The notes under the pieces: model-generated
What the model was told of the DNA's origin: nothing
Database searches by the model: none
What the model saw: only the letters and a program-made list of their open reading frames with translations
Origin: Escherichia phage KM01
Length of the DNA stretch: 64,000 bases
Direction: 5' to 3' (one strand)
Sequence record: PV018827
Translations under genes and position numbers: made by a program
In this document: piece by piece, positions 50,815 to 56,540 of the stretch
Position numbering within the stretch: the stretch's first letter is position 1
Layout of the letters: each line of letters starts with the position of its first letter

Positions 50815-50940
50815 TATCCGACGGATGTTCGAGGAATGTTCCTCTCCCTAGCATCGGCCCCATACGGGAAATATATTAAGGTTAGGTTAGTTGAGTCAGA
50901 ATAACTCACATAGCCCTCCGAAGAAGGCTATAGGCGTTAC
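50815..50940. repeat. intergenic repeated element, copy A (second copy at 56430-56540)
   Basis: Shared blocks CGGATGTTCGAG, CTCTCCCTAGC, CTCACATAGCCCT and GCTATAGG in the same order and orientation in both copies. Confidence 0.5.
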
Positions 50941-50945
50941 TACAA

Positions 50946-51161
50946 CTAAAAATCACTTGATTTTACAAAATCATCACTAAGGATTTCGTCAATTTCTTTG
51001 TTAGTCAAATCTTTCCTGAACCAACAACAAGGTACATCCACCCATTGACCAGAGTTATTTTCTACAGAGCATCTATTGCCTGTCTTACTCTTGCACTTAT
51101 AGGTTTTACCTTTGTCTAGACGGTAGTGTATTCTGTAAACGATCGACACAAGTGTTATCAT
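50946..51161 (-). CDS. hypothetical small protein
   Basis: 71 aa; Cys-containing; start overlaps stop of upstream gene. Confidence 0.3.
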   Translation of the reverse strand: MITLVSIVYRIHYRLDKGKTYKCKSKTGNRCSVENNSGQWVDVPCCWFRKDLTNKEIDEILSDDFVKSSDF

Positions 51162-51394
51162 TACTCGCCTTTCTTAGCACGATCTTTGGCAGTTTTGCCA
51201 GTGCGGATGCGATGGGAAACGTTAACCAGAGTGCCACCATCAACTACAGTAACGCTCTTGTTTTTAGCCAGATCAAACACAGTCTTCTCTGTGCCGCCCA
51301 AGCGAATTTGCTTAGGCTCACTGAAGGTTTGGGTTGATTTAGATTGGAACTGGAATGGTTGACGGATTGCATCAATTGCGCTTACTTTAGACAT
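51161..51394 (-). CDS. hypothetical small protein
   Basis: 77 aa; AAGGAA RBS immediately after a T8 run. Confidence 0.3.
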   Translation of the reverse strand: MSKVSAIDAIRQPFQFQSKSTQTFSEPKQIRLGGTEKTVFDLAKNKSVTVVDGGTLVNVSHRIRTGKTAKDRAKKGE

Positions 51395-51409
51395 AGGGGA
51401 AATTCCTTA

Positions 51410-51447
51410 AAAAAAAGTTATGGCTGCGTAGAGGGAATTCCATACGC
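51410..51447 (-). terminator. hairpin plus T8 run (terminator/attenuator) downstream of a GCGTCATAGTACTAAAA motif
   Basis: GCGTA-12 nt-TACGC stem followed on the minus strand by TTTTTTTT, about 15 nt before the start of gene 51161-51394. Confidence 0.4.
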
Positions 51448-51628
51448 AAATTGGGCCGCCCACAGAGAGGCGTCATAGTACTAAAAGGAGGAGAGAAGAG
51501 AGCCTATTTAGCTACCTTTTTCTGTCCGTTTACGAACCAGATAATTGAACCGTCAGGCTGTCGTTGACCGAAGCCTTTCTGGTTAATCATATCGTCATAA
51601 GAATATGCTTTACGTCTCATTTGTTTTC

Positions 51629-51883
51629 CTACGAAGTTAAGATGATTTCAGCCTTAATAAACTTCTCACCAACAACCATATCACCAGAGATGACACGTAG
51701 TTCTCCAGTGCCTAGGTTAACAGCTCCAGCAGGTTGACAACCCCTGCTTTTAGCTGTCATCATATAAACCTTTTGATTTTGGCACTCTTGGAGAGTGAAC
51801 ACATCTGACATATTTAGATCTCTGACGCGGAGGATTTTTTCCTCTTTGTCTTTAACTTTAATGTTAATAATGCTCATATGCAC
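51629..51883 (-). CDS. small paralog-family protein (member)
   Basis: 84 aa; shares L-x-V/L-x-D/S-L-x-x-G/S-D/N-V/I-F core with 9 other ORFs (ILRVRDLNMSDVFTL). Confidence 0.45.
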   Translation of the reverse strand: MHMSIINIKVKDKEEKILRVRDLNMSDVFTLQECQNQKVYMMTAKSRGCQPAGAVNLGTGELRVISGDMVVGEKFIKAEIILTS

Positions 51884-52128
51884 TACTCCTGAACCACTGA
51901 CATACGAATCATTTCTACCTGATCATCAAGACCTTTAACAGATAACATACCTGTGGAAAGGTTTACCACAGGAACCCAACCACTGGCTATACGGATGTTA
52001 CCAGAAGCATTTTCAACCCTCATGTAATACTGAGGAGAGGCACTTCCGTTCTGAACCACGAAAGGGTTTCCGGGAATGATTGTTTCCAATCGTACCGTAT
52101 TATCCTTTTTCTTTGGGATGATTTTCAT
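51883..52128 (-). CDS. small paralog-family protein (member)
   Basis: 81 aa; VRLETIIPGNPFVV core; overlapping start/stop with neighbours. Confidence 0.45.
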   Translation of the reverse strand: MKIIPKKKDNTVRLETIIPGNPFVVQNGSASPQYYMRVENASGNIRIASGWVPVVNLSTGMLSVKGLDDQVEMIRMSVVQE

Positions 52129-52376
52129 TGCGTATTATCCACTAAAAGTTCTGCTGATACAGGAACAACCTGACAACGACCAAGAGGGGCTGAAACAACC
52201 CCATCACCTAGCCGGAGAGTAGGTATCCGGTTATCTGGGATTTTGATGTTAGGACTTAAGGTAACAATCCCTTTCACATAAAGATCTTCATTGTGTGGGA
52301 ATTTAAACACAGAACCATTAGCTAGAGAGCTTAGCTCTACTGCTTCTACTTCCTCTTTCTTATATGTGATTTTCAT
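52125..52376 (-). CDS. small paralog-family protein (member)
   Basis: 83 aa; VELSSLANGSVFKF core. Confidence 0.45.
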   Translation of the reverse strand: MKITYKKEEVEAVELSSLANGSVFKFPHNEDLYVKGIVTLSPNIKIPDNRIPTLRLGDGVVSAPLGRCQVVPVSAELLVDNTQ

Positions 52377-52384
52377 ATTGATTC

Positions 52385-52696
52385 CTATTTAAGTTTGAGG
52401 CTAATGTTAAGGTGCATACATGCCCTGTTCTGTACAGCAGCATAACTTCTACCGAGCATGTCAGCCATTCTCTGAATAGACATGAACCCAGCATTACGGA
52501 TAAGGAACTGGTCTTCTTCTTCAGACCATTTAACTCGGATTGAAGCTCTTGATATTCCGAATTTAGTACAAGCTGTGTTAACTGCATTCTCCGTTACATT
52601 CATAATCTGAGCAACTTCTTGAACCGAGTACTCTTTGATTAGTCTCCGAAGATTTTCAATCTGCATCGGAGTCCATATAGTTCTTCGTGCTTTCAT
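52385..52696 (-). CDS. DNA-binding protein with two Myb/SANT-like helix-turn-helix repeats
   Basis: Two W-x(2)-E-x-L repeats: WTPMQIENLRRLIKEYSVQEVAQIMNVTENAV and WSEEEDQFLIRNAGFMSIQRMADMLGRSYAAVQNRA. Confidence 0.4.
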   Translation of the reverse strand: MKARRTIWTPMQIENLRRLIKEYSVQEVAQIMNVTENAVNTACTKFGISRASIRVKWSEEEDQFLIRNAGFMSIQRMADMLGRSYAAVQNRACMHLNISLKLK

Positions 52697-55062: not shown

Positions 55063-55096
55063 AACCCCTCCATTGAGCTAAGGGTGCTGAATTTGT

Positions 55097-55306
55097 TTAA
55101 CTGAAGATACGCAAGGCCACATCATGACCTATATGACCGGGAACTTTATGCTGCTCTATTTTCAAACAGCGTTTACAGATACGAGATACACGAGATTCTT
55201 TTCTCTCGACTGGAGTGTCTTTAGCGTGAGTGATTTGAAGATTCTCAGTGATCACCCACTCATGTTTACACTCAGAATCTTCGGGCTTTTTCTTACGGAA
55301 GAACAT
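55097..55306 (-). CDS. small zinc-ribbon protein
   Basis: 69 aa; C-x-H...C-x2-C pairs (SECKHEW ... CKRCLK). Confidence 0.35.
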   Translation of the reverse strand: MFFRKKKPEDSECKHEWVITENLQITHAKDTPVERKESRVSRICKRCLKIEQHKVPGHIGHDVALRIFS

Positions 55307-55314
55307 AACACCCC

Positions 55315-55476
55315 TTAGATTACATCACGATGACTGACTTCACCACACACCTTACACTGGATAATGTAACGTGTGCCCTTGTCATTGTTTCCATCTGAAT
55401 CTGTATAGACCAGAGGGCGAGTATTAATAATTTTCCAATCATGACAATGAAAGACACGCTTTAGCCACTTGAACAT
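55315..55476 (-). CDS. small zinc-ribbon protein
   Basis: Track frame 55315-55650; likely start MFKWLKR at 55476; C-terminal HCHDW ... CKVCGE. Confidence 0.35.
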   Translation of the reverse strand: MFKWLKRVFHCHDWKIINTRPLVYTDSDGNNDKGTRYIIQCKVCGEVSHRDVI

Positions 55477-55483
55477 ATTAACC

Positions 55484-55735
55484 TCAAGCACAAGCAGGGA
55501 GAGTGATGATTTTATACTGACCTTCGAACTCTCCAAATAAACCCAAGAATGTAGGACTGTAAGTACCAGTACAAACAAACTCATCAAACAGTGCGTTATA
55601 GCTAGGCTTAATCTTCCAAGCCCATACATAACCCATCTTGTCAATTGCAATGTAACGAGTGTTCAGAGGAACAGTCATCATCACATCATCAACTTCGATC
55701 ACTTTAGTTATTGGTGCAGCTTGGAAGTTTTTCAT
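55484..55735 (-). CDS. hypothetical small protein
   Basis: 83 aa; ATGA overlap with upstream small ORF. Confidence 0.35.
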   Translation of the reverse strand: MKNFQAAPITKVIEVDDVMMTVPLNTRYIAIDKMGYVWAWKIKPSYNALFDEFVCTGTYSPTFLGLFGEFEGQYKIITLPACA

Positions 55736-55908
55736 ACTTTACCTTTGATAAAAATGTCATTACCACAGACACAGCATGAACGAACAACAGTAGCGCCACG
55801 CTGAACGATACGAACCTCTTCCTTAACCAGATTAACACGAGCACCACAGCAAGGAGAGTTAACATAAGAGTAACCAGCTTGTGTATTCTTGATTGTTTGC
55901 TTAGACAT
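55732..55908 (-). CDS. small Cys-rich protein (below ORF-track threshold)
   Basis: Manual translation MSKQTIKNTQAGYSYVNSPCCGARVNLVKEEVRIVQRGATVVRSCCVCGNDIFIKGKV. Confidence 0.35.
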   Translation of the reverse strand: MSKQTIKNTQAGYSYVNSPCCGARVNLVKEEVRIVQRGATVVRSCCVCGNDIFIKGKV

Positions 55909-56028
55909 TTGAGCTTCCTCTTGTTAATTTAGGTAAACCACCCCAATCACTGCTGCACTCATTCATGTGGAATGCAGATGGGAAAATCAATTAAAGGTGA
56001 TTTACCTAAAACAACAAAGGCTACCCGA

Positions 56029-56048
56029 TTGGGCAGCCTTTTATTTAT
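56029..56048. terminator. bidirectional hairpin terminator
   Basis: GGCTACCC-gatt-GGGCAGCC with T/A-rich flanks; follows a small minus-strand ORF ending near 56058. Confidence 0.45.
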
Positions 56049-56429
56049 TAACTGTTATATGTCCAATTACCTTGCTTGTTACGAATAGCCGACATTGCAT
56101 GAATCCAGAAGCCTTCCAGTTTCAGAGCACCATTAGCTACTGCATCCATACGTTCAGGGCGGTTCATACGTTTGGTTGATACTTTCATATCTATCTCTCT
56201 TTGTTAGTGGAGGCATTATTGCCAGTTGATATAAGGGATAGTCCTAGTCAGTAAGCTAATTCTGACCGCGTACTCATTGCCGACCTTCTCTGCCTAAGAG
56301 TTCAGGTTCTAGAGCTATCTCTTATTCTAACTGGTGAAGACTCCCTACCCCTAGGAAGTCTCCTGAATCCCAAACCAATACGTACCCCTACATATCGGAA
56401 AGTCTTTCGAAAATTAACAGGTTTTAGTC

Positions 56430-56540
56430 TAACACCGGATGTTCGAGCAAGCTCTCCCTAGCGGTGTGGCATATGCCTGAATTAATAAGTTAATGAGGAA
56501 CACCCTCACATAGCCCTCTGATAAACACAAGGGCTATAAG
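56430..56540. repeat. intergenic repeated element, copy B (see 50815-50940)
   Basis: Contains CCGGATGTTCGAG, CTCTCCCTAGC, CTCACATAGCCCT and an 8-bp stem TAGCCCT/AGGGCTA. Confidence 0.5.

Follow-up and report, generated by a model that had tools for sequence, protein, structure and literature searches.

A Structured RNA Family of Enterobacterial Phages with Two Copies in the phiEco32-Like Escherichia Phage KM01

Introduction

Phage HK022 carries two cis-acting RNA antiterminators, putL and putR, which lie in early transcripts upstream of terminators and act without a dedicated phage protein (PMC9378689). The present analysis concerns a pair of elements, copies A and B, in a stretch of 64,000 nucleotides (nt) of Escherichia phage KM01 (sequence record PV018827; "the window" hereafter), which very probably are paralogous copies of an uncatalogued structured RNA of ~130 nt located within long early leftward transcripts. 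The put RNA suppresses termination in cis via the beta-prime zinc-binding domain of RNA polymerase, and would be the closest analogue of the mechanism favored below. As with put, there are two related copies of the element per genome, they fold into RNAs with an irregular stem, they lie in early transcripts of the host polymerase upstream of terminators, and no phage partner has been found for them, as none is needed by put. The two systems differ in that put has ~70 nt and two stems, is located near promoters and belongs to a lambdoid phage, whereas the element has ~130 nt and five helices (H1-H5), lies kilobases away from early promoters, and is carried by virulent podophages that encode a sigma factor.

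Other described RNAs share some of these properties. The nut sites of lambda and the rrn leaders resemble the element in the two copies in early transcripts before terminators, and in a small hairpin (H3 in the element) following an A/U-rich stretch; no N-like partner protein was detected, however, and the domain made of H4, an internal loop and H5 has no counterpart in nut. RNase III signals of the T7 type are likewise irregular hairpins that recur between the genes of a polycistronic early transcript and have conserved internal loops, but the element has three extra conserved helices, a shorter irregular hairpin, and one or two sites per genome. It resembles orphan RNA motifs in being phage-borne and found by sequence and covariation only. 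A catalogue of phage candidate structured RNAs holds 8,495 unnamed candidates with an average length of 67 nt (PMC10690425), and the element may be among them, although it is larger than that average.

The phiEco32-like phages are a model of the takeover of host RNA polymerase, accomplished via their own sigma factor and the anti-sigma-70 protein gp79, and are under development for therapy. To our knowledge, no RNA component of this takeover has been described, and put is the only well characterized family of protein-free RNA antiterminators. The region that contains the element belongs to the early class and is transcribed leftward by host sigma-70 RNA polymerase in long operons (PMC8948821; PMC4281155). 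Promoters of the phage sigma factor gp36 were mapped in phiEco32 upstream of genes 6, 13, 26, 40, 58, and 68 (PMC4331800). The published transcription work consulted on phiEco32, 7-11, and SU10 does not mention the element.

Identification of Two Copies in the Window

The element is a new, well-supported RNA family found across three phage families and having a precise conserved surface. A preliminary description of this DNA had noted two intergenic regions of ~120 bp that share four sequence blocks, and all four were found in the order and orientation described, far beyond chance: the composite GGATGTTCGAG-N(2-14)-CTCTCCCTAGC occurs twice in the window and in none of 100 dinucleotide-preserving shuffles, and the exact blocks are unique to the two sites within the window. 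Blocks CGGATGTTCGAG, CTCTCCCTAGC, and CTCACATAGCCCT(C) match exactly in both copies. The fourth block is present in both with one mismatch (GCTATAGG in copy A and GCTATAAG in copy B), and had been taken as identical. The stem that it forms with the third block exists in copy B as described and in copy A as well (AUAGCCUUC-UUCG-GAGGGCUAU, minus strand). The initial extents, 50815-50940 and 56430-56540, were roughly right and are widened by the covariance model to those in Table 1. Small genes of 50 and 46 amino acids (aa) do follow the copies, at distances of ~100 and ~235 nt and not immediately downstream; at their upstream side, both copies begin right at the stop codon of the gene before them. 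No third copy was detected in the window with either of two covariance models, R1 and R2. In a scan of the window against Rfam 15 the sole match was tRNA-Arg, and nothing was found over either copy at E values up to 10.

Conserved promoter-plus-leader regions, small RNA genes, and remnants of a duplicated insertion had been offered as explanations. An RNA gene or leader-type RNA agrees with the shared five-helix fold, its compensatory changes and its location on the transcribed strand. The other two found no support: the gp36 promoter (tAATGTAtA, 6-8 bp before the start) was not found in or beside the copies when one mismatch was allowed, the published gp36 promoters being elsewhere, and, with regard to a remnant, each copy is separately kept in ~100 phage genomes, relatives exist in two more phage families, and the differences between the copies preserve pairing.

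Distribution among Phages

The 6.6 kb around the element is 98% identical to Escherichia phage YW01 and matches 109 phage records of ~77 kb, including phiEco32, NJ01, SU10, and ECBP2, which are Kuravirus (phiEco32-like) podophages. In ~100 Kuravirus genomes, copies A and B are each conserved in their own right (84-100% identity), and covariance models found two copies in every Kuravirus checked (the window, phiEco32, and ECBP2). Further copies outside the window, whose existence the preliminary description had proposed to examine, are present in Salmonella 7-11-like and Citrovirus phages. The Salmonella 7-11-like phages (Moazamivirus) have one copy (SeKF_80, L008:7997-8138; 7-11, L020:6260-6401) in a position syntenic with copy A. 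Between Kuravirus and SeKF_80 the element is 74% identical in nucleotide sequence, as against only 29% identity of the syntenic upstream membrane protein, and this contrast suggests selection on the RNA itself. An element kept more faithfully than the surrounding proteins is usually in direct contact with some conserved machinery of the host.

Viral, metagenome, and genome collections were scanned by exact pattern and then filtered with the model, and the variants reported are those among the matches listed. They include a clearly divergent copy (L062:3015-3145, 65 bits) in a 48.7-kb contig that was binned as Flavobacterium and is a Citrovirus-like phage of Zobellviridae. Klebsiella phages KpnP_VR7901, Klyazma, and Asterion, Citrobacter phage CVT22, and one uncultivated virus genome contain further copies. 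Several of the Citrovirus phages have one copy each. The loci of the Salmonella, Klebsiella, and L062 copies gave no Rfam 15 match at E values up to 1. With covariance models, no copy was found in Erwinia phage Pecta, and only one borderline match of 24 bits in Cronobacter phage GAP52. The hosts of the element-bearing phages are all Enterobacteriaceae. Mimicry of a host sequence was considered and rejected, since copy A had no match at E values up to 1 in a blastn search of 5,426 E. coli genomes.

Fold and Covariation

Both copies adopt the same five-helix RNA of ~130 nt on the minus strand, which is the strand of the genes. From its 5' start, AGUAAC, containing or following the stop codon of the preceding gene, the element consists of hairpins H1, H2, and H3 followed by a closing helix, H4, and a hairpin, H5, placed across a conserved irregular internal loop. 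The stem of H1 is UAUAGCC/GGCUAUG and its loop is variable. An A/U-rich linker of 16-24 nt separates H2 from the mini-hairpin H3, which has a C-G closing pair and a loop GUAU or AUAU. H4 encloses, in this order, 5'-G CUAGGGA, hairpin H5, and 5'-GAACAUC C, and the strands of the internal loop are 5'-GCUAGGGA and 5'-GAACAUCC.

RNAalifold recovers H1, H3, H4, and H5 with compensatory changes. In alignments that were fitted to the covariance model, 30 distinct Kuravirus and Moazamivirus sequences have 95.9% of cells paired, as compared to at most 49% in slid controls, with double changes at nine pairs. A corresponding alignment of 19 distinct sequences represents the lineages A, B, Salmonella, L062, Klebsiella, and CVT22, the number of independent lineages being ~6. 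In it, 95.0% of cells are paired vs. at most 42% in slid controls, 20 of 25 pairs show double changes, and the observed paired cells and covariation score were reached in none of 500 shuffles. The sequences of H1, H2, and H4 are wholly different in L062 and pairing is retained. The double-change count given by the tool for H2 is too low, because in the model alignment the A-type rows are shifted by one column. Provided that the fold is real, which the covariation indicates, the element represents an uncatalogued RNA family in three families of Enterobacteriaceae phages.

Three additional pairings were rejected. A long-range helix closing the 5' and 3' ends of copy B (GUAACACCG / CGGUGUUAG) conflicts with copy B of ECBP2, where the base change that compensates for U-to-A in the 3' strand lies in the internal 5' strand of H4 and not in the competing 5'-terminal stretch. 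A pseudoknot between CCUA of the linker and UAGG of the core is lost in the B copies of ECBP2 and phiEco32. An 11-nt tetraloop receptor (CCUAA / UAUGG), recognizable in copy A and the Salmonella copy, has no counterpart in copy B, and covariation in H3 favors the hairpin.

On the gene strand, G.U wobbles outnumber A.C mismatches 23 to 5, and the structure is therefore that of the transcript or of same-sense DNA. Lineages differ by gaps of 1-7 nt and by loop lengths, which means that there is no conserved reading frame in the element. Short open reading frames inside it are called by some annotators.

The Conserved Internal Loop

While the helices drift, the letters of the internal loop are invariant in Kuravirus, Moazamivirus, and L062 save one coupled position, at which GGG[A]GAG...CUC[G]AAC is exchanged for GGG[C]GAG...CUC[A]AAC. 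The loop-closing pair is A.G in 19 sequences, C.A in nine (plus L062), A.A in two, and C.G in none. Lineages A, B, and Salmonella each contain both the A.G and the C.A state and L062 has C.A, the non-canonical A.G / C.A / A.A exchange being recurrent in at least four lineages. In sheared (trans Hoogsteen/sugar-edge) pairs, A.G, A.A, and C.A can replace one another, and the pattern of exchange agrees with tandem sheared GA pairs stacking on H5. When its two strands are set against each other, the loop reads G-C, C.C, U.U, A.A, G-C, G.A, G.A, and A.G, and is probably a continuous non-canonical helix that ends in tandem GA/AG beside H5.

The Citrovirus copies retain only the H4-proximal part of the loop, 5'-G CUA / AUC C-3' (CUC in CVT22), the remainder being largely Watson-Crick. 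The universal feature is therefore a 3x3 loop flanked by G-C pairs, 5'-CUA / 5'-AUC, with C.C, U.U, and A.A (or A.C) oppositions, which goes together with the H3 mini-hairpin and the order of the five helices. In Kuravirus, Moazamivirus, and L062, it is extended by the G-C, G.A, G.A, and A.G pairs. The internal loop of the H4-loop-H5 domain would be the conserved functional part of the element and a putative binding surface.

Genomic Context and Downstream Signals

All genes around both copies are on the minus strand. The early region is read as long operons, and internal terminators must therefore be passed. In every lineage, the element starts within a few nt of the stop codon of the preceding gene and has the orientation of the flanking genes. 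No neighboring gene is conserved, as upstream and downstream genes are non-homologous between lineages and the sole syntenic neighbor is the membrane protein upstream of copy A and of the Salmonella copy. With neighbors that change from lineage to lineage, the element behaves as an autonomous module. A tblastn screen for phage proteins restricted to element-bearing phages found none.

Terminator-like hairpins, with or without a U tract, follow the element in four of the six lineages (A, Salmonella, Klebsiella, and L062), at a distance of 55-130 nt and immediately ahead of the next ribosome binding site. The hairpin of copy A is conserved after the Salmonella copy, with stem changes that keep pairing, and the one after the Klebsiella and L062 copies has a U-rich tail and lies 70-130 nt downstream. 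Klyazma has no other plus-strand terminator-like site beyond its strong early promoters within the 5.9 kb examined. Copy A is also followed by one of the two perfect DnaA boxes of the window (Table 1); this box is conserved at the same place after the Salmonella copy, and is missing after copy B and the Citrovirus copies. Downstream of copy B there are two conserved hairpins with the octamer UAGGGGUA in their loops, which are possible partners of the element. The octamer, which resembles the core CUAGGGA, is also present in the hairpin past the Klebsiella Citrovirus copy (L072, ~2850-2880), and L062 has CAGGGGUG.

Table 1. Coordinates of both copies, their helices, and downstream signals in the window (extents of the copies from the covariance model; A and B denote the copies).
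Feature	Position	Strand	Remarks
Copy A of structured RNA	50809..50941	-	Between homologues of phiEco32 genes 91 and 90; R1 137 bits, E 2e-30; R2 117 bits
A: H1 hairpin UAUAGCCUUC-UUCG-GAGGGCUAUG	50909..50932	-	8/8 model pairs with double changes; stem wholly replaced in L062
A: H2 hairpin GAGU...ACUC	50893..50907	-	Fourth pair U-A, C-G, or G-C by lineage (by eye)
A: A/U-rich single-stranded linker	50869..50892	-	Sequence varies across lineages
A: H3 mini-hairpin CCC-GUAU-GGG	50859..50868	-	CCC/GGG, GCC/GGC, GGC/GCC, UGC/GCA by lineage; closing C-G invariant
A: H4/internal loop/H5, CCGAUG-CUAGGGA-[GAGGAACAUUCCUC]-GAACAUC-CGUCGG	50818..50857	-	H4 covaries at 4/6 pairs
Perfect DnaA-box 9-mer TTATCCACA	50789..50797	-	Between copy A and its terminator, 12 nt past copy A; association uncertain
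Terminator-like hairpin and U6	50730..50754	-	55 nt downstream of copy A, just before next ribosome binding site
Copy B of structured RNA	56423..56551	-	Between homologues of phiEco32 genes 113 and 112; R1 114 bits, E 6e-25; R2 118 bits
B: H1 hairpin, 12-nt loop	56509..56538	-	
B: H2 hairpin UGAGG...CCUCA	56494..56508	-	
B: H3 mini-hairpin GGC-AUAU-GCC	56468..56477	-	
B: H4/internal loop/H5, ACACCG-CUAGGGA-[GAGCUUGCUC]-GAACAUC-CGGUGU	56432..56467	-	
Two conserved hairpins with 8-nt UAGGGGUA loops	56336..56395 (56378-56395, 56336-56363)	-	Downstream of copy B; stems change, pairing kept
Strong terminator-like hairpin	56008..56041	-	380 nt past copy B, after 46-aa gene; strongest of region

Comparison with Known RNA Classes

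Neither copy is called a tRNA or pseudo-tRNA by Rfam or by ARAGORN at four settings (including default, intron, and relaxed), and the T-loop resemblance of UCGAACAUCC lacks a flanking stem. Hammerhead ribozymes are three-way junctions with a core CUGANGA ... GAAA and an invariant G12. The core of the element, CUAGGGA-[helix]-GAAC, swaps G5 and A6, is part of a two-way junction and has only CAUC at the place of stem III, and the base equivalent to G12 is A in 11 of 30 sequences; a hammerhead was rejected. Kink-turns consist of a three-nucleotide bulge, followed by tandem sheared G.A/A.G pairs, and are flanked by a canonical helix. The element has the tandem GA/AG beside H5 with covariation of the sheared type, and five unpaired letters, not none, on the opposite strand, in which it departs from the canonical arrangement. 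For boxA (GCUCUUUAACAA or CGCUCUUA) beside a hairpin, the window copies match at 6/12 positions (shuffle p 0.69-0.91) and the candidate was rejected for them; the Citrovirus copies match at 9/12 positions (p 0.01-0.03, uncorrected).

Possible Functions

Any explanation has to account for an element lying on the sense strand of an early operon, independent of its neighbors, with an invariant irregular helix, in one or two copies, in phages of Enterobacteriaceae, with no phage partner found and with terminator-like hairpins after it. The reading tentatively preferred here, as quite possible, is that of a cis-acting nascent RNA which binds host RNA polymerase or a host factor and sets read-through downstream. 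The folded nascent RNA would be a docking site for a conserved host component, either the transcribing E. coli RNA polymerase itself, as for the put RNA of HK022, or a factor travelling with it. Binding would alter the outcome at the hairpins and terminators past each copy, and the amount of early transcription continuing into the downstream genes would be set by the element. The autonomy of the element, the lack of a co-occurring phage protein and the restriction to Enterobacteriaceae hosts seem to point to a host partner. Binding of a protein or RNA polymerase and read-through as its output are what we infer from the observed sequence, fold, strand, covariation, distribution, and position. 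More specifically, the element could be a new class of nascent-RNA regulator, an antiterminator or anti-pausing RNA that works without a protein, as put does, but is folded differently, and by which virulent sigma-encoding podophages of three families would bring early transcription past internal terminators; this is on the whole unlikely. If it were true, a second, unrelated antiterminator fold would show how nascent RNA reprograms RNA polymerase.

Several observations weigh against such control of read-through. Pecta and GAP52 have a similar genome layout and the element is missing from them. Good terminators at 59423-59406 and 59338-59319, upstream of copy B, have no element before either of them. 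Copy B has no nearby terminator, and a purely local attenuator therefore misfits some copies. No alternative pairing between element and terminator was found, by eye, to be conserved across lineages, and the boxA-like match is confined to the Citrovirus copies. No similarity to put in sequence or structure was found, the best hit of R2, run with filters off, being at 8 bits and E 1.6 in the 18-34 kb region of HK022, where put was inferred to be located.

The element could alternatively act in trans, as a stable noncoding RNA cut from the early transcript or ending at the following hairpin or terminator, and sequester or guide a host protein via its loop. This is possible but somewhat unlikely. 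The independence of the module from flanking genes suits it, as does the terminator-like hairpin after the A, Salmonella, Klebsiella, and L062 copies, which is usual for RNA genes; moreover, tRNA-Arg and a tRNA-like gene (see below) in the same region mean that it already yields processed RNAs. UAGGG-type motifs occur in the core and in loops of downstream hairpins in Kuravirus B and Klebsiella Citrovirus, and these, the core CUAGGGA and the UAGGGGUA loops, could be repeated binding sites in the style of a protein sponge. However, CTAGGG is not over-represented across the window and no known protein-binding motif fits: CsrA sites, for example, carry GGA, which UAGGGGUA does not have. In addition, no promoter common to all copies was seen upstream, where the sequence differs between phages, and no signal for a 3' end lies between copy B and the next gene. 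A role in processing or stability appears rather unlikely. RNase E would cut the A/U-rich linker, or RNase III the irregular H4-loop-H5 hairpin, after which H1 and H2 would cap the 3' end of the upstream message, and H3, H4, and H5 the 5' end of the downstream one. The position of the element, between genes of a long polycistronic early transcript and starting at a stop codon, agrees with such a module, as do the single-stranded A/U-rich linker between stable hairpins and the analogy to T7 RNase III sites. The RNase III signal corresponds to about two turns of irregular duplex. The irregular hairpin of the element reaches 17-22 pair-equivalents and is longest in the Klebsiella copies, but the 17-18 pair-equivalents of A and B are short for RNase III. 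Moreover, end protection needs neither an invariant 7x7 loop nor five helices kept across three phage families, and one or two sites per genome contrast with dozens of gene junctions.

Riboswitches that terminate transcription have an aptamer with a 3' part competing with a terminator stem, and downstream genes of a conserved class. As a ligand-sensing riboswitch or attenuator, the element would be a five-helix aptamer deciding whether the hairpin or terminator just downstream forms. The order aptamer-terminator-gene in A, the Salmonella and Klebsiella copies and L062, and the invariant loop nucleotides are in its favor. It is nonetheless very unlikely, since the downstream genes are unrelated between lineages and thus share no pathway, a conserved anti-terminator pairing overlapping the element was not found by eye, copy B lacks an adjacent terminator, and no Rfam riboswitch matches at E values up to 10. 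Function at the DNA level, as a single-stranded-DNA structure at a replication start tied to the DnaA box or as a duplex protein-binding site, is still less probable. The perfect DnaA box conserved 12 nt past copy A and the Salmonella copy would support it, and G.T pairs are tolerated in DNA hairpins too; but the box is absent from copy B and the Citrovirus copies, the element is co-oriented with flanking genes and starts at a stop codon in every lineage, the wobble asymmetry of 23 vs. 5 indicates one strand, and UUCG and UACG loops are stabilizers of RNA type. That the element is a promoter region, or what is left of a duplicated insertion in decay, and that its fold has no function, is hardly tenable. 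Copy A contains a weak sigma-70-like match (CTGACT-18-TATATT, 9/12) and TAATATATT, which matches the gp36 promoter consensus at 7/9 positions. Neither was seen in copy B or the Salmonella copy (by eye, and by a scan for the gp36 motif), and compensatory changes and cross-family conservation exclude neutral decay, so that covariation and the gp36-motif scan largely refute this explanation.

Should the element turn out to act in processing or to sequester a protein, its irregular loop, which is invariant and shows covariation of sheared pairs, is still a precise, mutable experimental handle, and the element is a lead for specialists in RNA and in phage transcription.

Other Features of the Region

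At the right end of the genome, tandem strong terminators (59319-59423 and 60870-60897, minus) and two near-consensus sigma-70 promoters (62743-62771 and 63376-63404, minus) delimit several early transcription units. Weak matches to Rfam "Phe_leader" at 55908-56067 on both strands (34 and 24 bits; threshold 55) reflect the bidirectional terminator 56008-56041. The 46-aa gene after copy B (56048-56188, minus) recurs in SeKF_80 as a homologue (L059:42902-42991) that has no element in its vicinity, and a 129-aa protein (58196-58585, minus) is a homologue of the endolysin that follows the Salmonella copy.

The tRNA-Arg(UCU) gene (54574-54649, minus) overlaps the end of a 140-aa open reading frame (54640-55062, minus), annotated as homing endonuclease in Bas91. 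Neither Rfam nor ARAGORN with default settings reports a tRNA-like gene at 52725-52870 (minus), in which the acceptor stem has 7 bp, the T arm is perfect (GUAGG-UUCGAAU-CCUAC) and the ACCA end is encoded; the intron option of ARAGORN calls it tRNA-Val(tac) with a 49-nt insert. Of 141 related records, only ~10 contain this gene, and the version in Klebsiella phage VB_KpP_HS106 shares 95% identity with it. Common descent with the element was considered, both having GAUGGCUAGGGAG, and rejected; this stretch forms the variable-arm hairpin in the tRNA-like gene, and the resemblance is therefore probably due to chance.

Within a noncoding stretch of 540 nt (52697-53236), the segment 52910-53056 (minus) has 80-85% identity to the N4-like phages PhAPEC5, UE-S5b, KP8, and pSb-1, and may be a second RNA element crossing phage families. 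In the early region of L062 (1978-5668), at least six small proteins (62-91 aa) all end in EENE and look like a paralogous family.

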